Source of the DNA: a virus
Lineage: Duplodnaviria > Caudoviricetes
Direction: 5' to 3' (one strand)
IMG/VR virus record: IMGVR_UViG_3300020576_006344
Coordinates: 1-64,000 of that record
DNA: 64,000 nucleotides
The notes under the pieces are model-generated. The model had not been told where the DNA came from and did no database searches. It was given only the letters and a program-made list of their open reading frames with translations. Of the stretch, positions 1 through 45,999 are shown in pieces. Position numbers and translations under genes: made by a program. Positions within the stretch are counted from its first letter, which is position 1. Each line of letters begins with the position of its first letter.

Positions 1-725
1 GCGTAGGTCTGAGCAAGAAGTCCTCCCAATTCACTTGCGCCGGAGTATAGCGTGTTACCGCTCAATGTCGGAGCGAATGTCACTCCAGAGGAGATGAGGT
101 TCAGCACCGATGGCGATGCCACCAAGCCTACACTAGGAGCATTAGGCGTACCACCAGTGGTGATGTTGTTGCCTTGCTGCACCCACTGGTTCTGCACGGT
201 AATCGGCGCGTAGGCCGAGTTGAACTTGTTGGAGAGGGCGATTGATAGCTCAGTGGCGCCGGAAACGAATGTTGTGGCAGATACGGATGTTCCGCTTACA
301 GACATCGCCGTAATGGCCGTGAATACGGGCGAACCAGCAACGTTGATAATGGGCGCTGTGACAGTCCCGCCAGTTGTGATGTTGAGACCCGGCTGAACGT
401 ATGCCGTTGTACCACTGAGCGCGAACATCTGGCTCAACGGAGTGCCGCTCACGTATATGTTTGTTGCGCTGAAATTGACAGCGCTGAAGGACTGTGCTGC
501 GAAAGCGTTGAAAAATGGAAGGCCTCCCCACAGTGAAAGGAAATCAAGCGTCCTAGATCCGGTGGAACTCCATGACGCTGCGCCGTCCGTGTTGGTGTAC
601 AGGAGTCCCGTCTGTGTATCAAGGTACGTGCTGCCGCTCGTTGCCGTGTGGTCAGGTGTGCCCCCGCTTCCAATTTGTATTGAAACGAGACCTACTGAAA
701 TATCCCTGAGTCCTATGGTGGCCAT
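1..725 (-). CDS. Tail fibre-like repeat protein (partial, runs off the left edge)
   Basis: Not in the ORF track. ATG at 725 reads MATIGLRDISVGLVSIQIGSGAPDH... and stays open to the edge. It carries the same YVQPGLNITTGGT repeat as the neighbouring 2171-aa protein. Confidence 0.75.
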   Translation of the reverse strand, partial: MATIGLRDISVGLVSIQIGSGGTPDHTATSGSTYLDTQTGLLYTNTDGAASWSSTGSRTLDFLSLWGGLPFFNAFAAQSFSAVNFSATNIYVSGTPLSQMFALSGTTAYVQPGLNITTGGTVTAPIINVAGSPVFTAITAMSVSGTSVSATTFVSGATELSIALSNKFNSAYAPITVQNQWVQQGNNITTGGTPNAPSVGLVASPSVLNLISSGVTFAPTLSGNTLYSGASELGGLLAQTY

Positions 726-728
726 ATC

Positions 729-3700
729 TTAATACTTAGTTTCTACCTGCATTTGTATGAAGTCCATGATCGCGTCAGCGCTGGTTGTGGCATTGTTGAT
801 GTACAGGTGTGGAGTAAGGAAGACGGTTGAGGGCGGAACGTTCGTGTTGACCGACCCTTCGATCTTATCGGTGGAGTCCAATCGCTCCAAGTAGTAATTC
901 ACCACGGAGGAGTTTGGTGTCGCGTATAGATGTGCCTCGTACACCGTGTTGGCTGATGTAGCGGGGAACGCGGCTCCGAAGTCCACTACCGAAGCGGTTC
1001 CTGACCCATCATTGTACATGAACTTGACGTTGGTATCTCCCGAGTTGATACCGAAGCCCAAGATGGTACCCAAGCTGGTGGGCTCCACATTGCTTATGGC
1101 GGTAACGGCCGAGTACATACCCACGAACCACCGCATGTTGGTCTGCGCCTGTGCTATGCCGAACCTGAAGATGGCGTGGAACCCTCCTGCATTCGTGAGG
1201 TTGCCCAGCCAGAACGGAGCGGTTCCGCCGTTGTTGAAGATCATTGTTGCACTGGTAGAGGGCGTTGCGGTAGTACGCATTCCGACACGCTGCAATGACG
1301 CAAGAAGGCTTGATGTAGCGTATGTCTTCGGTTGCGATGTTCCGCCGATGATAGGAGATAGTCCGAAGCTGCTCAGCGTAGTTCCCCCATTACCCAAGGC
1401 CTTGACGAACCGCACGTTCGTCATACCCATGTGCGGCTGGAAGTTGGTTATCACTCCAGCGGCATCCTTGGTCTCCAACATGTTCCTTCCGGCTCTGGAG
1501 CGGTCATACAAACGTACTCCGTTGGCTGTACTGGAGGCGGTGTTGGATGAGTATGATTCCAGCACCAATGAGTTCGCGCTCATCGTGACCGCCGTCATGG
1601 ATACGGCCGTCACCGATGTGAAGATGGGCGTACCGGAGACATTGATTATCGGAGCGCTTGCGGTACCTCCAGTGGTAATGTTCAGTCCCGGCTGAACATA
1701 TGTGGCCGCTGCGGTACTGAACGTTGACAATATGGTGTTTAGAGGAGTACTACCGGAATAATACGTGGTGGCGGAGATGGACGTCGCCGACATCACATTT
1801 GCAGTCACTGCCGTAAACACAGGAGACCCAACGACTCCAACTATCGTATTGAATACAGTAGATGCCGTGTACGTGTTGGATCCGGGCGCCACAAACACAT
1901 TGGATAGGCCAAGATTGGTTCTGGTTGTCGCCGCTCCAGTTGGTGATGTCCATTGTAGTCCTGCATCATTCTTCACCAACATACCAACAAGTGTGTTGTT
2001 GAAGAATCTGGCTATGTCATTGACGTTCGTGCCGTCATTCGACACAGCAAAAAATGCAGGGAACGCAACACTGTCAGCAACGATACCGTAATTATTCTGG
2101 CTGAACCCATAGATACCTATTCCATCATTAGACTGTGATTGTATGCCATAGCTGACATCAGATGTTACGTTGACGGCATCAACACCAATGGCTTGTACAT
2201 TCAATGCTGTTATTCCACTGGAAGATGCAGACAGGTTACCATAAGGACCGAACTTGACAAGCTTGTCTCCATCAGCATCAAAGTTGCCTCCATAGCTCGC
2301 ATCTGTGATATCGGCGCTGACGTGAGTATGTGCGGATGATGCGAACACCGTCTGTAACGGTGTGCTACCGGAATAGTACGTGGCGGCGGATATGGACGTA
2401 GCGCTCAACGCAACGGCCGTGAGTCCCGTCAGATTTATCGTGCCAGCCAAGTTGACCACTGGAGCGAATGGGGTACCACCAGTAGTGATGTTCAATCCCG
2501 GCTGAACATAAGTTGTCGGGTTGGTATTGAATGTCGACAGTATGGTGTTGAACGGCGTGCTACCGGAGTAGAAACTGGTACCTGATATGGACGTACCACT
2601 GAGCGATTGCGCTGTAACTCCCGTAAGGATGATGGACCCCGCGAGGCTAACGATGGGGATGTTCGCTGTGCCTCCAGTGGCTATGTTCAAACCCGGTTGA
2701 ACATAGGTTGGTATGGTTGCGGTGAAGAGGGAGCCCAACTCGGATGCGCCAGAATAGTACACGGCGGCCGTGATGCGATTGCTCGCCTTGGCGTTCATCA
2801 TGAACACCGTGTCAACAGCATCAGACACTTGATCGTGTCCTCCCAGAATGGTAGATCCGGAATGAGTGAGCTTGTTGGCGTAACCGCCTACAATGACAGC
2901 GCCGATAATTCCGGAACCACTGAGCACATGGTCGATGCCTCCGATGATGGAGTTTCCGGACAAGCTACTATCATAGGGTGTGCTTCCTACAATATAGCTA
3001 CCGATGGCGCCAAGTATGACTGACGGTCCTCCAGCATTTATTATGCTAGAGTATACGGAAGAAATAGCGTATGCGTAGTACGAATTAAGGAATGTGATAT
3101 TGGTACTACCGAAGACGCTTCCGCTTCCGCTGTACGAACCAAAGCTTGAGTAGAAGGATCCAACACCAACGCTGCCCCCGAACACGTTGTATTGACCGCC
3201 TATCTCAACGGTTGAAATAGGAGCATTGAATATGGAACCAATAGAGCCGAATGCCACGTTATGGTTCCCTCCGTACATTTCGGTGCTATTGGAGGAAATG
3301 ATGGTTCCATATCCGCCTACGTCTTCGTACTGAACAATGTTGTTACTACCGCCAATGATAATGGCTTCGTAAGCATTCGTTGATGCTGTCGATGCGTATG
3401 AGCTTAGTATCATTGCTCCGTCAGAACCATCCCTTATCAAAGAGGAGTTCGAGAACAACATCTTGGCTCCGTATGTATTACTGATGGTTGATCCCCAACC
3501 ACCTACGATGTTATTGGAGTAATGACCTGTTGGAAGAGTTCCACTTATGATGGAGTCACGAGCGCCTATGATGTTCGATCCAGCATTGGATCCTGAGAAC
3601 GTATTGTTCCAACCTCCAATGATGGTGGAGCCAGATATGTCGAACGAGTCTGCCTCACTGAACACATGCGCAGGACCAACGAACAACGAGCCCCCTCCGT

Positions 3701-28578: not shown

Positions 28579-29110
28579 CACGCCACATGACTTTGAACCA
28601 CCGCAGTAGGCGCGGCAGGAGCCCTTCCTTCGATCGCTTGTTCGCCAATGCTATGGCTGCGTCGATCGTGGATTCCAGCGTGTTGGTTGGCGTGATGTCA
28701 GCGAACTTCTTGCCGATGAAGTCCAAGTATCGGATCTGTAAGGCGTCATCCGGGCGGCCATACACGACCTTGTCGCTCTTGACGTACAAGCCGTATTCGG
28801 CATTGGTGGTGATACCCATCATATCCGGCGCCTTTCGTGGTACCCAGAACATGATGACATCGGCAAGGCCAAGGTGATGGAGTTCCCATTCGATCTGCCC
28901 ATCATAGGTGGTGGAATTTCCGGTGGAAGGTCGCGGAACGAATACGCGCCCTGTGAAGTTCCTATCCTTCAATATGGCGAAGGCCTCGTCGCGCCAATCT
29001 GAAGGGAAGCCATCTCCTCTTCCGCGTGGTGAAGGACCCGCAAGGAATATGGCGGGGTCGCGGTCGATCTTTATGGAGAGACCTTCGTCAGAGTGGACGG
29101 TTCGCAGCAT
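28562..29110 (-). CDS. Nucleoside 2-deoxyribosyltransferase-like protein
   Basis: IFLAGP...DWR...PR...QIEWE...ADVIMFW...TNAEYG. Confidence 0.8.
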   Translation of the reverse strand: MLRTVHSDEGLSIKIDRDPAIFLAGPSPRGRGDGFPSDWRDEAFAILKDRNFTGRVFVPRPSTGNSTTYDGQIEWELHHLGLADVIMFWVPRKAPDMMGITTNAEYGLYVKSDKVVYGRPDDALQIRYLDFIGKKFADITPTNTLESTIDAAIALANKRSKEGLLPRLLRWFKVMWRVMPQL

Positions 29111-29661
29111 GGAAAGACGTGTTTATCGTAGTGATGTTGGATTGCGTTGTAGACGAACAGGATCTCTGTGAGGCTCACAGGGCGGAAGTGCCAAGCATCA
29201 ACACCCACGTTGATCATGTTGGGCTGTACCTTCCATAGCCCGTGGATGTGGCCCACGATACTGAGCGCGTGTGGCATGCCCGCCGAATGCTTTGCCCCGT
29301 TCGCAGGATAGTGGTTCAGATACATCAGAACCCCTTCGAATTGACGAAGCATGGAGTCGAACACCTGTCCATTGAACGCCGCGTGCAACAGCGGCATCTT
29401 CTCCGGCACGTCAACATCGTAGTTGCCCAAGATGAGCGTACGGTTCTTGCACTTGATGCGGTCCATGAAGGAGATGCCTTCAACCGTATAGGCTACGTCG
29501 CCCAAATGGTATAACTCATCATTCTCTCCAACCACCTCGTTGATACGCTCCACCATGGTCTCATTCTGCTCTTCCACCGACTTGAACGGGCGGAAGAACG
29601 GATTGAAAGCAGGCGTGATGCGGGTCTCGCCCCAATGGGTATCACTAAGAAAGTAGGTCAT
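29071..29661 (-). CDS. Calcineurin-like metallophosphoesterase
   Basis: SDTHWG, HLGD, LGNYD, HYP, GHIH, INVGVD. ATG overlaps the LAGLIDADG stop (ATGA). Confidence 0.88.
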   Translation of the reverse strand: MTYFLSDTHWGETRITPAFNPFFRPFKSVEEQNETMVERINEVVGENDELYHLGDVAYTVEGISFMDRIKCKNRTLILGNYDVDVPEKMPLLHAAFNGQVFDSMLRQFEGVLMYLNHYPANGAKHSAGMPHALSIVGHIHGLWKVQPNMINVGVDAWHFRPVSLTEILFVYNAIQHHYDKHVFPCCEPSTLTKVSP

Positions 29662-30473
29662 GTTGATTGTTGGATTTTTTGCCAAACCCTAATGTATCCA
29701 AGCCTTTTTATGATGAGGGTGACACCGCTCTGCGATAGTCCCATTGCCTTCGCTATAAATCCGTTAGACCTGTTTTCTTCTAACATGGTTCGAATCTTAT
29801 CTTCGTCTACTCTCGATTTTTCGTACTTGCCAATGTACGACAAATCTATCTTATCCCATTTGCGTACCAACAATGGTAGTCCAAGTTTCAAGATTGCTGT
29901 CTTTAGTTGCTTTAGTGTTTGGGTGTTGCCAATGCAAAGTTCAGCATATCCTTGATTGTTCAATTTGGGCCGCCCCCTTTCGTGTGCGATTTTCAAGTGA
30001 GTATAGATGAAGTCGTTCATGATGGAGACATTGTTGAGCCAACTGCCATGACACTTGATTCTAAGATGAAAGTCCATTCTATTCTGAAGCCTTCCAATAC
30101 TGCCGTCGCCATCTATGAATCCACATATGAATGACAAGAACAGGTCTCCCTTGGTTGTTAACCAGTCCAAGGATGGTGGATTTTCAGTTTTGTTGGAGAC
30201 AATGCCGTACTTCTTTCTTATTTCGTCTATAACAGGTTTGTTTGAGGCTGAAATCTTACAATTGGGATATCCATCGTTGGACCCATCGAATATGCGATCA
30301 ATCGACAGGTAGTTTTGTAGTCTAACCAGATGGGGTCTGTCTTTTGCCGCCAAGGTCACTTTCAATTCATGGTTCTTGTTGATGGTTCCATCCGCCATGA
30401 TGAATCCCATCCAGTAGTACGCCTCATTCGTTTCTTCTAGTAGCTTGTGGAGTGAAGTTGTTTTCATGCCCAT
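29658..30473 (-). CDS. Free-standing LAGLIDADG homing endonuclease
   Basis: YWMGFIMADG and FICGFIDGDG motifs, C-terminal HTH, AT-richer than flanks. The frame extends to 30521 through a phosphoesterase-like stub. Confidence 0.88.
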   Translation of the reverse strand: MGMKTTSLHKLLEETNEAYYWMGFIMADGTINKNHELKVTLAAKDRPHLVRLQNYLSIDRIFDGSNDGYPNCKISASNKPVIDEIRKKYGIVSNKTENPPSLDWLTTKGDLFLSFICGFIDGDGSIGRLQNRMDFHLRIKCHGSWLNNVSIMNDFIYTHLKIAHERGRPKLNNQGYAELCIGNTQTLKQLKTAILKLGLPLLVRKWDKIDLSYIGKYEKSRVDEDKIRTMLEENRSNGFIAKAMGLSQSGVTLIIKRLGYIRVWQKIQQST

Positions 30474-30478
30474 AAATA
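30473..30478 (-). promoter_or_regulatory. TATTTA candidate late promoter
   Basis: Directly upstream of the LAGLIDADG starts at 30473/30467. Confidence 0.55.
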
Positions 30479-30517
30479 GAGGCATGTCAGCAAATTGCGT
30501 ATCAGATGTGAAGTACA

Positions 30518-31156
30518 TCACTTCTTTTTGGCCCTTTCACGGGCTTGTTTTTCGAGCAGTTCGATCTTCTTTTTGGTCCTTTCACGAGCCTGTTTTTCGA
30601 GCAGTTCGATGCGAGAGAGGACCTTCTCGGCCTTCTCCTTCAACTGATATACGTTGGTGGAGGTGTAATTGTTTCCCACCCCAACGCCTCTTGCTCTATC
30701 GGCTAAGCTCTTGACCCCTTTAACTGGCTCTGCACCAGAGAGGTACATCTTGTACATGGAAGCACCTCGTTCGATGCTGAACACCTGACGTTGCTCATGA
30801 AAGGCTTGCAGCACCCCTGTATTATCATACTGCCACTGGAACCGTTTGGTGGGCGCCTGAAGAGAGTCAAGCAAGGCCTTACGCTTCTCGGCGGCCTGCT
30901 CCTTTTTGTTCATCTCACGCATCCTCCTCTTTGCCATGGCCATCGACTCCGCAGTCTGTCTCTCGCTCTTGGCGAATGCCTCCTCCAGCTTCTTCTTGGC
31001 CCGACGCTTCACTTCGGCCTCCGCCTGCTCTTTCAGTGTTTTGGCCTGCTGCTCCTCATCGGCGACCTCGGTATTCTTGGTCTTCTTCTTGGCCTTCTTG
31101 GCGTCCATTTCGCCCTTGAGTATGTCGCCCAGCAATATGTCGAACAAGCTCTTCAT
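30518..31156 (-). CDS. Hypothetical K/E-rich protein
   Basis: 212-aa ORF, ATGA-coupled to Rad50, duplicated C-terminal 15-mer. Confidence 0.65.
   Translation of the reverse strand: MKSLFDILLGDILKGEMDAKKAKKKTKNTEVADEEQQAKTLKEQAEAEVKRRAKKKLEEAFAKSERQTAESMAMAKRRMREMNKKEQAAEKRKALLDSLQAPTKRFQWQYDNTGVLQAFHEQRQVFSIERGASMYKMYLSGAEPVKGVKSLADRARGVGVGNNYTSTNVYQLKEKAEKVLSRIELLEKQARERTKKKIELLEKQARERAKKK
30521..30610. repeat. Tandem 45-bp duplication (2 copies, 3 mismatches)
   Basis: 30521-30565 versus 30566-30610. Encodes IELLEKQARER(T/A)KKK twice. Confidence 0.9.
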
Positions 31157-33990
31157 CGGCGTACATGCAATCTGGTGACCCCGGCGCGCTCGTCCCGGTC
31201 GTGGGCGCTGTCCATTATGATGTTGCGGTCGCGGATGGCCTCTATCACATGATCGGCCCCCTCTTTCACTTCATCAAGGTGTGTGATGATGACCACGTTC
31301 TGGTACTTGCCCTTCAAGTACTCAAGCATGGTCATGATGTTCTCGCGTAGCTCATTGCCGAGCGTGCCGAAGCCTTCATCGATCATCATGATGGATGGCT
31401 GCACGATGGAGCGCTTGCTGACGTAGTTCAAAGCATCCTTGATGGCGATCGATGCGATGAACTGCTGGGAGCCGGACCCGCTGTTGAGCGGAAGCGCATC
31501 CCACTTGCTCTCGGTGTTGTAGAACAACTCCGTGATGTTGCCTTTCATGTCGATGGAGAACTCCATTTTGAATCCGACGATGGTCTGCAAGATGGAGTTG
31601 ATCTTGTTGTTGAGCATCGGAAGCCGCTTCTTGATCACCATGGCTGGTATCCCGCTGCGCTCCACGGCTTGCAGGTAGATGGAGTACAGCTTGTACATCT
31701 TGTCCCCGGTCTTCACCTCATTGAGCTTCTTGACCTTATCATCCATTGCATTGCCCAATAGGCGGACATCAGCGGCAAGGCTCATCAATTGGGTCTGTTG
31801 TCCATGCATGGACAGCTTGTAGGTCTTGATCAGTGCTTGCAGGGTTTCTATCTCCGCCTCCAGCAGCTTGTTGTTCGCCTTGGCTTGAACAACACTGTCG
31901 TACTTGGCGATCTTCTCATCCAACTTGACAAGTTCACGCTGGCCGAGTTCATGCGATATTTTCCACATCTTGACTTCCTGACGCTTGCGCTCGATGATGC
32001 GGTTCAATTCGATGAACTCCTTGTTCTTCTTGAAGTTCTCCATCTCCAACTTGATGGACTCGATGATCTTGCTGCGCGACTCCAAGGACACCTTCAGGGC
32101 ATCCAGTTGGACCTGCTTGGTGTCGAAGCTGCGGTTCCACTCTTTGACCGTGTTGAACGATTCGATGGATTGGCGATAGCGCGTGATCGCATTGTTGCCC
32201 TCGGTGATCAAGGCGTCCATGTCGGAAACGCCCTTGGGGTCCGGTTTGCTGATGGCCTGCTTGCACGTGGGGCAATCCTTGCCGAGGAAAGTCTGGCGTT
32301 TGTTCTGATAGTCCCGAAGATTCCGGTTCAACTCGTCTATGCGCGCCTGCGTAGCGGTGACATCAATGTTGGGCAGTTCCTTCTTGGGGTTGTCCTCCAA
32401 CCACTTCTTGTTCGTGAGGTACTTCTGCTTGTCGGTCGCGAACACAGAGCGGACCTCAGCGAGTTCGGCCTCCAATATCTCAGTGGTCCTCTTGGGGTCA
32501 ACCTCAAGTTCGCGCAGGACGTTCTTGTCGAGCCACTCATCATGGAGGTCAATGGCCGACTTGAGCGTCGTCTGGGAGGTGAGCTTCGTGGCGTGGTCGG
32601 CGATGATGGCGTCCTTGCTGTCGTACCCGAGGTCCTCCACTTTATGGAGACTCCGCGTGAGTTCCAGCACCTTGCTCTGTGCATCCTCCTGCTTTTGTGT
32701 CCACATCCGACGCTCCTCCTCAAGGGTCGACACCATCTTCTCCTTGTCCTCTATCTGTAACTTGAGGCTCTTGATGTCCAACTCTATGTCGACCGACTCA
32801 CCGAGCAGCTTCTGCTTTGTGCGAAGCTCATTGTATGGCTTCTTCACATATTCATGACGATCACGATAGGTGTGTAGATTTAGGTAGCGCGCAATGAGGT
32901 CATTCTTCTCCTGCTGCTCCAAGTTGAGGTATCCGTCCTTCTCGTTCTGGGCGTGCAGGCTGACCTTCATGAAGTCATCGTATGTTCCGAGCGCATCGGC
33001 TATCATGTTCTTCACCTCCGTGTTATCGGCGGTGGAGTTGTCAGACATGGTGTTGCACCACCTGTACTCCATGGCGCCATCGGGGCCCATGGCCTCGCGG
33101 AAGACCTCGAATTTGGTCGGATAGCTGTTGCTGGACTTTCCCTTGTGTACCTCCCGCGTGCTTCGGTATCGGATGCCGTCTATGTCGTAGGTGTTGCGGA
33201 CATAGCCTTTGTCGGATTTTGTGTAGATGTTGATCAAGTACTTCGCGTGCGCACCACCGATGATGTACTGGAACATGCCCCACACCACCGCCTTGATCAG
33301 GTTGGACTTGCCGCAATAGTTCTCGCCGAATATACCGGTGAGGCCACGCATGTGGTCCCAGTTGATGGTGGTGGGCTCCACAGGGAAGGAGAACACGTTG
33401 CTGACCTCCGTGGTCAACAGGGTATACCTCCTGTTCTCCTTGTGCGTCTGCTTGATGTCGATCTCCCGTTCCAGCTTGAGGGCGAACTCGATGATCTCCC
33501 GGCGCTCATCCTCATCGACGTCGAAGTCGTTCTCGTCGAGGAACATGTTGAACATGCGCTCGATGTCATTGGGATCGATCTCGTCTTGATCGACCTCCTC
33601 GGGATTGAGCGTCTGCTTGTCCAGTTCACGGAACTCCACGTGGATGCTCTCGCACCCATGTTTGTCCTTGACCAACTGCTTGATCTGATTGAGGCGTTCG
33701 ATCGAATAGCTCTCCTCGAAGTCCTCGTACACGATGTGGACCTTGGTCTTCCGCTTGTTGTGGCTGAACTGCAAGTGCGATAGGCGCTCCTCGATGTTCT
33801 CCCCGCGTGAGATGGTCATCTTGCACCACCCATAGTCGTTGGGGATCAGTCGGCGCTCGTTCGACACCTCCTGACCATCGATGTGCCACAGCAGGTAGCC
33901 CTTGTCAAGGGATTCTCCATACCCCTGCTGCAAAAGTGATCCTGAATAACCGGCAGACGGTATTTTTTTTCTGAGCTTAACGGTTGCCAT
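31153..33990 (-). CDS. sbcC: Rad50/SbcC-like ATPase with Mre11 C-terminal fragment fused at its N-terminus
   Basis: Walker A GENYCGKS, zinc hook CPTC, GSGSQ signature, IDEG, ITH. N-terminal YSGSLLQQGYGES..KGYLLW is an Mre11 motif. Confidence 0.9.
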   Translation of the reverse strand: MATVKLRKKIPSAGYSGSLLQQGYGESLDKGYLLWHIDGQEVSNERRLIPNDYGWCKMTISRGENIEERLSHLQFSHNKRKTKVHIVYEDFEESYSIERLNQIKQLVKDKHGCESIHVEFRELDKQTLNPEEVDQDEIDPNDIERMFNMFLDENDFDVDEDERREIIEFALKLEREIDIKQTHKENRRYTLLTTEVSNVFSFPVEPTTINWDHMRGLTGIFGENYCGKSNLIKAVVWGMFQYIIGGAHAKYLINIYTKSDKGYVRNTYDIDGIRYRSTREVHKGKSSNSYPTKFEVFREAMGPDGAMEYRWCNTMSDNSTADNTEVKNMIADALGTYDDFMKVSLHAQNEKDGYLNLEQQEKNDLIARYLNLHTYRDRHEYVKKPYNELRTKQKLLGESVDIELDIKSLKLQIEDKEKMVSTLEEERRMWTQKQEDAQSKVLELTRSLHKVEDLGYDSKDAIIADHATKLTSQTTLKSAIDLHDEWLDKNVLRELEVDPKRTTEILEAELAEVRSVFATDKQKYLTNKKWLEDNPKKELPNIDVTATQARIDELNRNLRDYQNKRQTFLGKDCPTCKQAISKPDPKGVSDMDALITEGNNAITRYRQSIESFNTVKEWNRSFDTKQVQLDALKVSLESRSKIIESIKLEMENFKKNKEFIELNRIIERKRQEVKMWKISHELGQRELVKLDEKIAKYDSVVQAKANNKLLEAEIETLQALIKTYKLSMHGQQTQLMSLAADVRLLGNAMDDKVKKLNEVKTGDKMYKLYSIYLQAVERSGIPAMVIKKRLPMLNNKINSILQTIVGFKMEFSIDMKGNITELFYNTESKWDALPLNSGSGSQQFIASIAIKDALNYVSKRSIVQPSIMMIDEGFGTLGNELRENIMTMLEYLKGKYQNVVIITHLDEVKEGADHVIEAIRDRNIIMDSAHDRDERAGVTRLHVRR

Positions 33991-33993
33991 GAT

Positions 33994-34731
33994 TCAGACA
34001 GCCACTCTGGCCGTTACGGGTTCCCATCCTTCTTGGATGTATTGCTGTACGTCCTCCTCATCCACTTCGATGAAGTGATCGCGCTCGAATGTCTGGTGCT
34101 CATGGATGTCGCCCATGAGGACAGCGTCGAATCCGGCGAACGTCGATAGCTTCACAAGTTCATCGCCGGAGGCATCGTAGCCGTTGTCCATCTTGCAGCC
34201 GTAGAGCATGCCATGCCACAAGGCCACATAGGTCTTGCCGGGCTCCTTGTTCTCCAACTTCAGCAACTTGTTGTCCTTACAGGAGAACACCCCATACACC
34301 AGTTTGTCGCTGATGTCGAAGAAACCCGTGTTGGGGAAGTAGTAGATGGCCCTGCGGCTGAAGTCGATTAGGGATTTGTTCTCATCGGTGACCACTACGG
34401 CCTTGTCCTCCCTTCCAAGGCGACGCGCTATCTCGAATATGGGCGATAGCGCGTCGCCTTGCTCCAGTTGCTTGAGGTTCAGGTCATGATTGCCAAGAAT
34501 GACATCCGTGGGCGCTATCTCAGCGAGTTCGAACATGAACTTGGATACCAAGTCAATGGAGGATGGCGACAGCTTCACCTTGTCATGGAAGATGTCGCCC
34601 GCCAGTACAATGCGATCGGGTCGGCGCTCAGCGAGGTCTTTGAGTGTTCTGGTGAACACCGTCTGGAACTCATCGTGCCTCTTACCGTACCGTACCTGAA
34701 TGTCAGCTATGTGGGCTATGGAGACGCTCAT
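33994..34731 (-). CDS. sbcD: Mre11/SbcD-like nuclease, N-terminal part
   Basis: IAHIADIQ, LAGDIFH, LGNHD, WHG, MGDIHEHQ. Ends before the YxGS motif. Confidence 0.88.
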   Translation of the reverse strand: MSVSIAHIADIQVRYGKRHDEFQTVFTRTLKDLAERRPDRIVLAGDIFHDKVKLSPSSIDLVSKFMFELAEIAPTDVILGNHDLNLKQLEQGDALSPIFEIARRLGREDKAVVVTDENKSLIDFSRRAIYYFPNTGFFDISDKLVYGVFSCKDNKLLKLENKEPGKTYVALWHGMLYGCKMDNGYDASGDELVKLSTFAGFDAVLMGDIHEHQTFERDHFIEVDEEDVQQYIQEGWEPVTARVAV

Positions 34732-34737
34732 CAACCG

Positions 34738-34745
34738 CAAACGTA
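34738..34745 (-). promoter_or_regulatory. Bacteroidota-type -7 box TACGTTTG
   Basis: Matches TAnnTTTG, 6 nt upstream of ATG 34731. Confidence 0.45.
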
Positions 34746-34774: not shown

Positions 34775-35383
34775 TCACTGAGAAGACTGATTCGCTTCCA
34801 GAAGCTCCTCCTGCTTGATGACGTTCAGGATGTGGCACGTCCCCACGATGTAGGCGTCTACCATGTCGTAGCTCTCGTCGATGAGTTTGCGACTCTTGGG
34901 TCCATACTGCCAGTTGATCTGGGGTTCCATGCGGGACACCCTCTTCCAAACCTCTTGCTTGGCGCTGGTCTCACTGGACTTCGGCAATCCCGGCAGGACC
35001 GTGCTGCGAGCGTGGTTCACATTGTAATGGACCGGTTTGACCCCGAACAAGCGGAAACACCTGTCACTGATGATGCCGTTGAAGAAGTTGAGCAGGCCTA
35101 TGGTGGCTGCTGAGCTATGCTTCCCCTGCACGCGGAGCAAAGGTTCTTCGATGGCCACGAACTGGACCTTCACGGGCTCGCCTTCGATGACAAGCTCATT
35201 GATATAGGACACCTTCTTCTCGAAGAGGTCGGCCTTCTCAAAGAGGTCCTGCTCCTTGTTGGACCCGAACTTGATGTAGTCCATCGAGAGCAGGTCGCCG
35301 TTCTCATTGAACAGGCATATGCCGATGACGGAAGTGGATACGTCCAGCGCGAGAGTGGTCTTGTTTATCATGGGTGTTCCCAT
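34775..35383 (-). CDS. RuvC-like Holliday junction resolvase
   Basis: LALDVSTSVIG, AIEE, K..VW, DMVDAY RNase-H-fold acidic residues. Confidence 0.8.
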   Translation of the reverse strand: MGTPMINKTTLALDVSTSVIGICLFNENGDLLSMDYIKFGSNKEQDLFEKADLFEKKVSYINELVIEGEPVKVQFVAIEEPLLRVQGKHSSAATIGLLNFFNGIISDRCFRLFGVKPVHYNVNHARSTVLPGLPKSSETSAKQEVWKRVSRMEPQINWQYGPKSRKLIDESYDMVDAYIVGTCHILNVIKQEELLEANQSSQ

Positions 35384-43215: not shown

Positions 43216-45030
43216 TCAGAGGATTTCGAAAGGAATAGATATCCAAGGAAGATTGTTCAGGTTGCCAGTGGAGGCTCCACAGATGGGGGTGAAGTCATCG
43301 CGCAGCCCTATTTCGTGGGTCATGTAGTCGGAAGCCAAACTGTTCTGGCTCAACAGGATCAAACCGTGCATCCTGACGTTGTGAACCTTGTTCGGGCCCA
43401 TGAACGTGGTGGTGCAGGTGGTGGTATCGAACCTCGTTCTCATGTTGCTGTAGCTGGAGAAGAGAGCCAAGGCGTTGTTGGTGGCCTGAGCAGTGGTGGA
43501 ATGGCCCGATAGGGTGAACTCCCCTATGAAGTAGGTGTTCGGTTCATCACTGAACGTCTTGAGTTGGAATCCATGGGGCCCTGACGTCTGGGAAGTGCCA
43601 ACGATGTTGAACTCCGGAATGGAAGCATACAGTTCGAACTTGTACTTCGACTCCACGAACGTGTCATCTTCCAATGTTATGTTGTCCGATGCCAGCGTAC
43701 TGCCCGCTGGCTGAAGCCCGTTGTTCGTTGGAAGCGTGATGGTGGTGGCGTCCCTTCCAAGGAGTATGTTGAAAGTAGATCCCGCTGGGATGATGGATCC
43801 GTTGTAGGTTATTTCCCCCGCTCCTTGATTGGTCACCTTGAGGACCACCCCGGAGTCGTTGCCAATGGAGTCGACTCCAAAATAATATGTGGGCCAATCC
43901 GCATAATTCAGCGACTCGGAGATGCCTGCCGTATTCTGTTGGTCCGTATAGATGGTGCCCATCTCCACCAGCCAATACAGGGAGAATGTGGTGGTTGTCT
44001 GTCCATCGGCTATGGACATCAGGTAGAGTTCCTGTTCTGTGTGGTTGGGGTCATAACCAGACAGAACAGAGCCACGCTGCTTGAATATCCTGCCAAAGTC
44101 TATGGTAGTGAACCTACGCGCTATAGGAGGGTCTTGTATCAGTATTTGGACCCTCCTGATGGACTCAGGAAGGAACTTCACACTGTCAGGGTTGGTCAAC
44201 TCAAGGATGATGCGACGTGTACCGTCCAGAAGATTGTTGAGGCTCGCATTGATGGTCAATGTCTTGATCTGCTCTCCGATAGCCCATTCCAATCGCGCTG
44301 AGTTCAGCACCACGAATGATGTTGGGTCTAGGTCGAAGTTGCTCATACCGTTGATGATGGACACATCGACTTTCTCGACGCCGTATTGACTTGGTTGGTC
44401 GAGCGACACGGTGATGTTCACCTGCTCTCCCTCCACGACCAAGTATGACTGTAGTGCTGCGCTCGAATTGACCACACTGGAGGTGAACACAGAAGCGTTG
44501 GGCCTGCTGCTGGTCACCGAGTCCACGACGACTATCGAGTCGTTGCTGTTCACAAGTGGTCGAGTGTTGGTGCTCGCTTCGATGATGGAGACCGAGCGAA
44601 GCTCGGTCGTATCCAATATCATGACGTTGGACTGCACGAGAGGGCCCGGCAACAGGTTGACCATATTGGTGATCCCCAATATGAGTTCCTCGTCGCTTTC
44701 CTCCAAGAAGTCACGGAGTGCTGGGACGATGATCACCTTTTCCTGTTCGCCTATCTCCCACCGCACATGTACCGGGAATCCAGCCACATCTACATCCCCA
44801 TCAGTGGTGCTCACATGCGAAAGAACGATGTCAGCCTCTTCAGCGCCAGTGGTGCTCGGGGAGTTCAGGGAAACGATCACTGATACCGTGTTGGCTTCGT
44901 CCACCGTATAATAGGCCGTTATGAATGAGACGCTCAGTATCTGGACGTCATATGGGAACATCTCGTTGGTTTCGAGGTTCATGTCTACGAAACACTTCAA
45001 TATGGTGTTGACCTTTGCGGATTCTTCCAT
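43216..45030 (-). CDS. Structural protein with two Calx-beta/Ig-like repeats
   Basis: Repeated VxEG/A...VSLxxPS..G.E...W.IGEQ.K.I...D...E pattern. Confidence 0.6.
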   Translation of the reverse strand: MEESAKVNTILKCFVDMNLETNEMFPYDVQILSVSFITAYYTVDEANTVSVIVSLNSPSTTGAEEADIVLSHVSTTDGDVDVAGFPVHVRWEIGEQEKVIIVPALRDFLEESDEELILGITNMVNLLPGPLVQSNVMILDTTELRSVSIIEASTNTRPLVNSNDSIVVVDSVTSSRPNASVFTSSVVNSSAALQSYLVVEGEQVNITVSLDQPSQYGVEKVDVSIINGMSNFDLDPTSFVVLNSARLEWAIGEQIKTLTINASLNNLLDGTRRIILELTNPDSVKFLPESIRRVQILIQDPPIARRFTTIDFGRIFKQRGSVLSGYDPNHTEQELYLMSIADGQTTTTFSLYWLVEMGTIYTDQQNTAGISESLNYADWPTYYFGVDSIGNDSGVVLKVTNQGAGEITYNGSIIPAGSTFNILLGRDATTITLPTNNGLQPAGSTLASDNITLEDDTFVESKYKFELYASIPEFNIVGTSQTSGPHGFQLKTFSDEPNTYFIGEFTLSGHSTTAQATNNALALFSSYSNMRTRFDTTTCTTTFMGPNKVHNVRMHGLILLSQNSLASDYMTHEIGLRDDFTPICGASTGNLNNLPWISIPFEIL

Positions 45031-45033
45031 GCG

Positions 45034-45999
45034 TCAGTTTGCGTTTAGACATGAGTAGACCTCTGGACGGACAGGGTATCCGTTCATGGAAAGCTCCTGA
45101 ACAAGAACGGAGAGCACGTCACTGGAGGAGAACCCGTTGGTGGTGTCACCGAGCATGTCCTGTATATGCTGGCTATCAATGGCGTTGATCTCCATCATCC
45201 TTCGATGCGAGAAGTACAGCAGATCGCAATGCCGATTGTCCATGCATTGGGAACCATAGCATCTGGCTATCAACTCCTGCGCTGAGGCACTGAAATCATT
45301 TACGTTGAATACACTCGTGCTTCTTCGCAGTCGCTCTGATGGCAGAATGGTGACTTCGGCTCTACCAATGCGCTCGGTTTCTATGGTGGTATCAACCTCA
45401 ACGAACACTTCTGGATTCATGAGTTGACTGATCCGGTTAGGACAGTCATCGTACTTGTCCTTGCCATCTTGCAGATACGTTCTCGTAATGAAAACGGATA
45501 TGTAGTATCCGGGCGCAAGGTCGTACTTGATGGTGGTGTTCATCGCTTCTTGCGATCTGTCAGATTGGTCGACCGACAATGGGATGTTCTCCAGTGCCGC
45601 CGTGGGAGCCTCGCCGTTCCACAGGTGATCGGCCTCCATCGTCTGTACGGTAACCGTTTGGACAAGGCTGTTCTCCACGACGTTGGATGGAGTTTGTGTC
45701 CCCGCGAGCACGGTGATCTCATAGAATTGATTGAATACGTTGGCAAGCTCCTCATTGCTTCCCACTATCTGAACATATTCCGACTGCGTTGTGTTACCGG
45801 TGAGATAAGCTAGGAAATCCATGGCTATGACATTGTTCCTAGGATCGTTCAAGAACGTACGTACGTTGAACGGTGTCACCGTGGAGCCGCCTATGGAGTT
45901 GCCATAGACATAGTATCCGTTGAAATCGCGCAGGGCGGTTGTCGTCACTGACGGCGTTCCGGACAAGGACCTGTCTAGGAGAAGTCGGTGATACTGCAT
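45034..45999 (-). CDS. Probable structural protein
   Basis: 321-aa ORF in late operon. Confidence 0.6.
   Translation of the reverse strand: MQYHRLLLDRSLSGTPSVTTTALRDFNGYYVYGNSIGGSTVTPFNVRTFLNDPRNNVIAMDFLAYLTGNTTQSEYVQIVGSNEELANVFNQFYEITVLAGTQTPSNVVENSLVQTVTVQTMEADHLWNGEAPTAALENIPLSVDQSDRSQEAMNTTIKYDLAPGYYISVFITRTYLQDGKDKYDDCPNRISQLMNPEVFVEVDTTIETERIGRAEVTILPSERLRRSTSVFNVNDFSASAQELIARCYGSQCMDNRHCDLLYFSHRRMMEINAIDSQHIQDMLGDTTNGFSSSDVLSVLVQELSMNGYPVRPEVYSCLNAN

Follow-up and report, generated by a model that had tools for sequence, protein, structure and literature searches.

A 64,000-nucleotide (nt) stretch of the tailed-phage record IMGVR_UViG_3300020576_006344, hereafter the window (positions 1 to 64,000 of an IMG/VR record of 94.6 kb that is estimated to be ~28% complete), carries on its minus strand a Mre11-Rad50 gene that is divided in two inside the Mre11 nuclease domain. 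The upstream open reading frame (ORF), ORF-N, holds the nuclease motifs, and the downstream one, ORF-C, encodes the remainder of Mre11 followed by Rad50 (Table 1). The codons at the junction read GCT GTC TGA ATC ATG GCA, with the stop of ORF-N and the start of ORF-C in one frame, and reading through it gives a protein of 1196 amino acids (aa). The ATG at 34731, the start used by homologues of ORF-N, is its likely start and equals the end coordinate given in a first-pass annotation of this DNA. That annotation had described a Mre11/Rad50 pair divided inside the nuclease domain with halves in frame over a single TGA, and every feature it named was found. It had also cautioned that in-frame junctions of a stop, 3 nt, and an ATG occur at 725/729 (TAA GAT ATG) and 45030/45034 (TGA CGC ATG); both are present, the first (723-731, minus strand) after a 2182-aa fibre-like ORF and the second (45028-45036, minus strand) between ORFs of 332 and 605 aa, the longer of which has a weak Calx-beta match. 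Because such junctions exist elsewhere in the window, a shared frame is by itself weak evidence of a split, and it is homology across the break, rather than the frame, that carries the observation of one divided gene.

ORF-N matches the Pfam family Metallophos (calcineurin-like phosphoesterases; E 4e-12). Residues D13, G48, D49, H52, G83-N-H-D86, H176, G210, D211, H213, and Q216 occupy columns without variation in 33 homologues, and motifs II to V (G48-D49..H52, G83-N-H-D86, H176, and G210-D211-I-H213) are constant in two alignments of 33 sequences each. Motif V has an Asp at the position of the first His of classical Mre11. Motif I departs from the D-x-H form, reading A-D13-I-Q15 with a constant Asp, as the first-pass annotation had pointed out. 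Position 15 is Gln in 21 and His in 12 of the 33 homologues in one alignment, and Gln in 19/33 in the second; D-I-Q is thus a clade-wide variant, common to split and unsplit forms alike, and gives no sign of decay. All five metal-binding motifs lie in ORF-N, so that the split leaves the metal ligands together and divides the fold and the capping domain. Beyond GDIHEHQ, ORF-N continues into a segment that ends ..GWEPVTARVAV just before the stop. This extra segment had been noticed previously, but not that it is one end of an insert whose other end is the first 8 residues of ORF-C; in alignments, both ends are missing from unsplit relatives without the insert.

After its basic head, ORF-C proceeds into KIPSAGYSGSLLQQGYGES, the motif VI region, and the expectation that the remainder of Mre11 (YSGSLLQQGYGES..KGYLLW) would open this frame proved correct. 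The Rad50/SbcC ATPase and zinc-hook motifs that follow (GENYCGKS, CPTC, SGSQQ, IDEGFG, and ITH) are constant among 18 split homologues. A Pfam search with the read-through protein returned AAA_23 (E 1.7e-8; 35.8 bits against a cut-off of 27), together with SbcC_Walker_B (23.5 bits; cut-off, 27) and SMC_N (23.7 bits; cut-off, 40), both under their cut-offs.

The position of the break within the fold was examined in an AlphaFold2 model of ORF-N, the stop read as Trp, and the first 200 aa of ORF-C, computed as one artificial chain with 33 homologues; its mean pLDDT (predicted local distance difference test) was 87 and its pTM (predicted template modeling score) was 0.78. At Z ~24, the model matched the SbcD structures of S. 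aureus and E. coli over residues 1-370 and T. maritima Mre11 and E. coli SbcD over residues 6-430, Rad50-binding helices included. Plain phosphoesterases (Rv0805, GpdQ, and purple acid phosphatase) aligned up to about residue 300 only, and since this match extends past the break at 248/249, the break would lie inside the core fold. Structure comparison assigned ~50 residues of the phosphoesterase core to ORF-C, which in the model contributes three core strands, the capping domain, and the Rad50-binding helices. A Mre11/SbcD fold with its capping domain was predicted from both ORFs together only, and the ~50 core residues in ORF-C support the earlier suggestion that the nuclease domain would be complete only with two chains. 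For annotation, this means that calling the 248-aa ORF a complete SbcD, or the 945-aa ORF simply SbcC, would be misleading.

In the same model, the insert consists of a strand (216-227), a helix (228-236), a low-confidence loop (245-247) at which the break falls, and a second strand (253-265). ORF-N modeled alone kept its core and lost the strand at 216-227, with a pLDDT of <50 at residues 214-220. The two segments differ in charge, the tail being acidic and the head basic. As deduced from secondary structure and model confidence, the strands at 216-227 and 253-265 may pair, and tail and head would then form a long hairpin, with the break in its tip loop, that holds the two halves together.

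The split is conserved well beyond the window. A search with ORF-N returned ~45 protein clusters, ranging from 98% to ~35% identity and from 230 to 270 aa in length, that stop right after the conserved sequence ..IDExELExYxxxGWExV, and the position of the break is conserved across dozens of clusters from 98% to ~30% identity. Every split C-part starts with Met, one of Gly, Ala, Ser, or Thr, then Lys, Val or Ile, and a basic residue, so that the Met of ORF-C stands at the same place as in the other split lineages. A second contig from a different metagenome (L003; 99% aa identity) retains both the TGA and the ATG in a junction that reads GTA TGA ACC ATG, where the window has GTC TGA ATC ATG; the codons on either side of the stop differ. 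Between the two contigs, synonymous and nonsynonymous codon changes number 29 and 4 in ORF-N and 60 and 8 in ORF-C, and in the acidic tail 6 and 0. The ratio of nonsynonymous to synonymous change is roughly 0.05 in ORF-N and ORF-C alike, which indicates that strong purifying selection has acted on both in their split state.

With one stop interrupting a frame that is otherwise open, the TGA at 33994-33996 could also be a recent nonsense mutation that inactivated the gene, or an error of sequencing or assembly. The same stop in an independent contig from another sample, flanked by different codons, together with the excess of synonymous change in both halves, makes an error or a fresh pseudogene unlikely; the catalytic, ATPase, and zinc-hook motifs are all intact, and the break position is common to dozens of clusters. 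We give this explanation very little credence.

The shared frame and the mere 3 nt between stop and start also invite the view that the TGA is read through or recoded in a programmed manner, yielding one Mre11-Rad50 chain and making the split merely formal. Close relatives are indeed single chains of like length (1189-1192 aa versus the 1196-aa read-through). However, TGA is the commonest stop in the window, ending 52 of 75 long minus-strand ORFs, and the start Met of ORF-C is conserved. A relative with 70% identity (L004) has a TGATG overlap that places its second half in another frame, and in other split lineages the first half ends in TAG or TAA, with 430-2272 nt from stop to start. No tRNA gene, and hence no suppressor tRNA, was found within the window; the predicted folding of the RNA at the stop is on a par with that of shuffled sequences (z -0.09), and Rfam gives no match there. 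Readthrough is neither needed nor conserved, and we regard it as improbable. An alternative genetic code was rejected as well, TGA being the main stop and in-frame neighboring ORFs being no commoner than expected. The first-pass annotation had offered readthrough and a recent nonsense change as its alternatives, and the two relatives L003 and L004 and the selection data speak against both.

Relatives recovered with ORF-C fall into three states that are interspersed when ordered by similarity. In unsplit relatives, one ORF spans ~1148-1160 aa, and no more than 8-16 residues separate GDIHEYQ from YSGS. Fused-with-insert relatives (P0067, P0068, P0070-75, P0080, P0081, P0090, and P0105) are likewise single ORFs, 1172-1213 aa long, and carry ~40-45 aa inserted in frame, the ends of which resemble the tail and head of the window; they have no Met at the position of the ORF-C start, and their linker varies in sequence and length. 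Split relatives have C-parts of 940-955 aa. Most relatives have one ORF, of about 1050-1190 aa, and of the IMG/VR loci in which both motifs were found (n = 128), 118 were unsplit and 10 split. The proposal that a fused ancestor was split again at a new position is supported by this preponderance of single ORFs and by the conserved position of the break.

Comparison of DNA sequences delimits the insert closely. A split gene (L133) and an unsplit gene (L006) with 94.8% (N-part) and 96.4% (C-part) identity to each other lose homology directly after the Q-x-F codons and regain it at I-Q-Q. In a second split gene (L084), the break from a 75% relative (L085) falls exactly between the F and R codons, the insert is 1042 nt long, and the unsplit sequence around the insertion point is ..GAATATCAAACATTT|CGTGAAGATGAA.. 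in that relative. In the window, 123 nt (33967-34089) replace the two-codon R-E of unsplit genes such as L006. The presence and absence of the insert in nearly identical genes is thus directly observed.

Several of these relatives carry genes in the gap. The distance between motifs V and VI is 1069 nt in L084 and L090, with which L141 groups, 562 nt in L104, and 2401 nt in L133, and ORFs in the gaps of all five match homing-endonuclease PHROGs (phrog_9084, E 1.6e-24; phrog_559, E 5e-15 and 6e-11). The endonucleases of L084 and L133 are only 31% identical, having diverged more than their host genes (~50-65%); recent lateral transfer of the endonuclease itself was accordingly rejected, as the data show gain and loss of the insert and no fresh transfer between these lineages. 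The L133 gap also contains, at 1224-2557, DNA methyltransferase fragments (phrog_67, E 5e-50), together with a segment that matches a family of head-maturation proteases. A 313-aa ORF between the halves of L056 had no Pfam or PHROG family match. The gap between the Mre11 halves collects unrelated DNA. In the window, only 3 nt lie between the halves, and its arrangement of tail, stop, 3 nt, start, and head appears to be the empty, endonuclease-free stage of this series.

The same split has been described before. Dassa, London, Stoddard, Schueler-Furman, and Pietrokovski (2009, Nucleic Acids Res 37:2560; PMC2677866, section 13) reported, from the Lake Gatun sample of the Global Ocean Sampling (GOS) metagenome, two ORFs that match the N- and C-terminal halves of an SbcD-like exonuclease, with a Vsr-like endonuclease ORF between them, no intein, and ~25 C-terminal and ~9 N-terminal extra residues at the break that are absent from unsplit homologues. 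The window split is the same as that of this intein-less "SbcD-like fractured gene." Both are split between consecutive motifs and have extra termini and no intein, and relatives of the window (L084, L104, and L133) carry an endonuclease at the site. They differ in that the window gap is 3 nt without an endonuclease, with stop and start in frame; in that its second half continues into a full Rad50; and in that its nearest relatives are single chains, re-fused or still fused, that have both segments. The first-pass annotation missed both this publication and the homing-endonuclease genes that relatives carry in the gap.

We therefore consider it probable that the two ORFs are an intein-less fractured gene, a "gene in pieces" left by a homing-endonuclease cassette whose endonuclease has since been lost and whose halves would reassemble. 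ORF-N and ORF-C are successive parts of a gene that is unbroken in relatives, and the 30-aa tail and 8-aa head are extra terminal segments, absent from unsplit homologues, that come without an intein or intron. The ancestral gene would have encoded one Mre11-Rad50 chain, and the cassette would have entered at the turn that joins the strands of motifs V and VI. It would have carried a Vsr-like free-standing homing-endonuclease gene, preceded by an acidic tail with a stop codon and followed by a new start codon with a basic head. Only afterwards, in the lineage of the window, would the endonuclease gene have been wholly lost, leaving the stop, 3 nt, and an ATG. Both halves would be translated, probably coupled through termination and re-initiation. 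The metal-binding site would then come from ORF-N, and ORF-C would contribute the remainder, from the last core strands and the capping domain through the Rad50-binding helices to Rad50. Tail and head would pair into a long beta-hairpin that bears a helix close to its tip, and in this way clasp the halves into a working nuclease. Such reassembly has indirect support in the purifying selection on both halves and in the predicted tail-head hairpin, for which both partners are required.

That endonucleases of the same family accompany the split inteins of other fractured genes and sit in group I introns (PMC2677866) raises the question of whether tail and head are split-intein halves, or the insert an intron, with splicing restoring a single chain. 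The tail of 30 aa and the head of 8 aa are very short, however; a Pfam search detected no Hint or intein domain; and fused-with-insert relatives keep both segments in an ORF of mature length. The 123 nt of the insert are too few for a self-splicing intron, and Rfam models of group I and group II introns had no match at E values up to 1 in this region of the window or in four cargo-bearing loci. The SbcD-like locus of Dassa et al. is stated to be intein-less (PMC2677866). Splicing is, in our judgment, the most remote of the explanations weighed here.

Fracture of a gene by a homing endonuclease, with tails that clasp the products, is a known mechanism, and the present split was first reported in 2009. 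In Aeromonas phage Aeh1, Crona et al. (2010, PMC3045599) found that NrdA, when split by mobE, depends on its tails for activity, and proposed such tails as a general way to neutralize gene fragmentation. That case, also reviewed by Edgell et al. (2010, PMC2988022), resembles ours in that an essential DNA-metabolism gene was fragmented by a free-standing homing endonuclease and acquired new C- and N-terminal tails; it differs in the host gene, in its HNH endonuclease MobE, and in that tail function was shown there by experiment and is predicted here. Gene 43 of Aeromonas phages 25 and 44RR (43A/43B) is split with an endonuclease gene in one phage and with only a short intercistronic sequence in its relative (PMC2988022), full and empty forms of one split, as among the Mre11-Rad50 relatives, although the gene encodes a DNA polymerase and the endonuclease is of the GIY-YIG seg type. 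The Mre11-Rad50 family is well suited to asking whether cassette-borne tails act as a clasp, as in split NrdA, or become permanent insertions, in a repair enzyme whose Mre11 and Rad50 subunits are usually studied as separate proteins. Four forms are extant (unsplit, split-with-endonuclease, split-empty, and fused-with-insert), some of them in genes that are 95-96% identical, and together they make a natural series on how an essential enzyme survives a cut inside its core fold.

Some observations weigh against a cassette-fractured gene in the window. Neither an endonuclease gene nor a remnant of one lies between the halves, and no homologue of the L084-type endonuclease was found in the 94.6-kb record, itself only partial; with none in either place, the cassette origin rests on the relatives. 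In P0067 and P0068, the nearest relatives when Rad50 sequences are compared (73-75% identical), a single ORF retains both tail and head in the form of an internal insert of ~45 aa. Lastly, parsimony in the 15-row subclade slightly favors a fused-with-insert ancestor, which requires 3 changes against 4 for a split ancestor. The last two points would be expected had the window arisen by secondary fission without a mobile element, through a nonsense mutation in the tip loop of a single chain that already had a 45-aa insert, plus a nearby Met. The window is sister to P0067 and P0068 with a support of 99, the linker of fused forms varies in sequence and length, and an in-frame TGA-ATC-ATG is the expected trace of one nonsense change in a continuous linker. 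Against this stands the ORF-C Met, within M-x-K-V-basic-hydrophobic-basic-K-K, which is placed as in all split lineages, including those that bear endonucleases, and is absent from fused forms; its shared position is better explained if it was kept from a split ancestor than if it was gained three times in parallel. The insert would go back to the same cassette even if the fission were secondary. We think secondary fission unlikely, though it deserves more weight than readthrough, error, or splicing.

To trace the history of the insert, a maximum-likelihood tree was computed from 55 rows of the Rad50 part, without the insert itself. On this tree, the three states require no fewer than 13 changes, and the insert was gained or lost no fewer than 10 times. 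A tree forcing all insert-bearing rows together was rejected (log-likelihood lower by 3441; p 6e-5 in the approximately unbiased test), the group having been named after the tree was seen. The insert is thus a discrete unit that has been repeatedly gained or lost, the expected outcome of homing and of its reversal by recombination with unsplit alleles. On a reading to which we assign slightly less than an even chance, the fused-with-insert relatives are re-fusions of a once-split gene, in which the cassette segments have settled permanently into Mre11 as an internal hairpin mini-domain. If so, the TGA-ATC-ATG of the window is one point mutation short of re-fusion, and a path can be traced from the scar of a mobile element to a new protein insertion with every stage extant in nature.

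The locus has no close counterpart in a cultured phage. A megablast search of the locus against the phage collection gave no match, and tblastn returned relatives with <30% identity only. The best matches (22-25% identity) are single-ORF Mre11-Rad50 proteins of Microcystis phage Mel-JY01 and uncultured huge phages. The Mel-JY01 protein (WWT39521.1; 1066 aa) shares domain order and motifs with the window and is 24% identical over 97% of the read-through; these large-phage proteins differ in being one ORF with ~8-16 residues between motifs V and VI. A 1328-aa single-ORF Mre11-Rad50 with 33% identity to ORF-N was also seen in two entries (L019/L020; IMGVR_UViG_GVMAG-M-3300020192-26_000001, a 417-kb contig) on contigs labeled as giant-virus metagenome-assembled genomes, so that the fused architecture either extends beyond tailed phages or stands in bins that contain phage DNA.

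Table 1. Features of the divided Mre11-Rad50 locus in the window, with the endonuclease gene of one relative
Feature	Coordinates	Strand	Basis or remark
ORF-N	33994..34740	minus	248 aa counted from TTG
ORF-N catalytic part, Mre11/SbcD phosphoesterase motifs I-V (ADIQ, GDxxH, GNHD, H176, GDIH..Q216)	34093..34740	minus	Pfam, alignment, translation
Acidic tail of ORF-N, ERDHFIEVDEEDVQQYIQEGWEPVTARVAV, 30 aa, 5' end of the insert	33997..34086	minus	Alignments, DNA breakpoints, AlphaFold2
Break: TGA stop (33994-33996) and 3-nt spacer ATC	33991..33996	minus	Without cargo gene
ORF-C	31153..33990	minus	945 aa
Basic head of ORF-C, MATVKLRK, 8 aa, 3' end of the insert and new start codon	33967..33990	minus	Alignments, translation
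Rest of Mre11 in ORF-C: motif VI strand (KIPSAGYSGSLLQ), last core strands, capping domain, Rad50-binding helices (predicted)	33406..33966	minus	AlphaFold2 model, structure match
Rad50/SbcC part of ORF-C	31153..33405	minus	Pfam, motifs; stop 31153-31155
Walker A, GENYCGKS	33301-33336	minus	Motif, coordinates checked
Zinc hook, CPTC	32263-32274	minus	Motif, coordinates checked
Signature, SGSQQ	31462-31476	minus	Motif, coordinates checked
Walker B/D-loop, IDEGFG	31366-31395	minus	Motif, coordinates checked
H-loop, ITH	31279-31287	minus	Motif, coordinates checked
L084 endonuclease	L084:2008-2811		

The window is 52% G+C, and nearly all of its genes lie on one strand. A Shine-Dalgarno-like core precedes only 5 of 66 long genes, which makes a check for one at the ORF-C start uninformative, and TATTTA-like words stand ~10-25 nt ahead of many starts. 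The scarcity of such cores and the presence of these words suggest a host or an expression system that does not rely on Shine-Dalgarno pairing.

Just upstream of ORF-N, at 34775-35383 (minus strand), lies a gene for a RuvC-like Holliday-junction resolvase (phrog_159, E 1e-5; phrog_827, E 7e-5), a neighbor that marks the locus as a recombination and repair module. On the other side, a 212-aa Lys/Glu-rich ORF (30518-31156, minus strand) overlaps the stop of ORF-C; it has no Pfam or PHROG family match, and a direct repeat near its C terminus (..ELLEKQARER.KKK) occurs twice. The second gene downstream of ORF-C (29658-30521, minus strand) encodes a LAGLIDADG-type endonuclease (LAGLIDADG_3, E 7e-7; LAGLIDADG_1, E 1e-4), and the genome to which the window belongs carries several selfish elements. 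Directly after the LAGLIDADG gene, at 29071-29685 (minus strand), is a phosphoesterase gene (phrog_547, E 5e-39).

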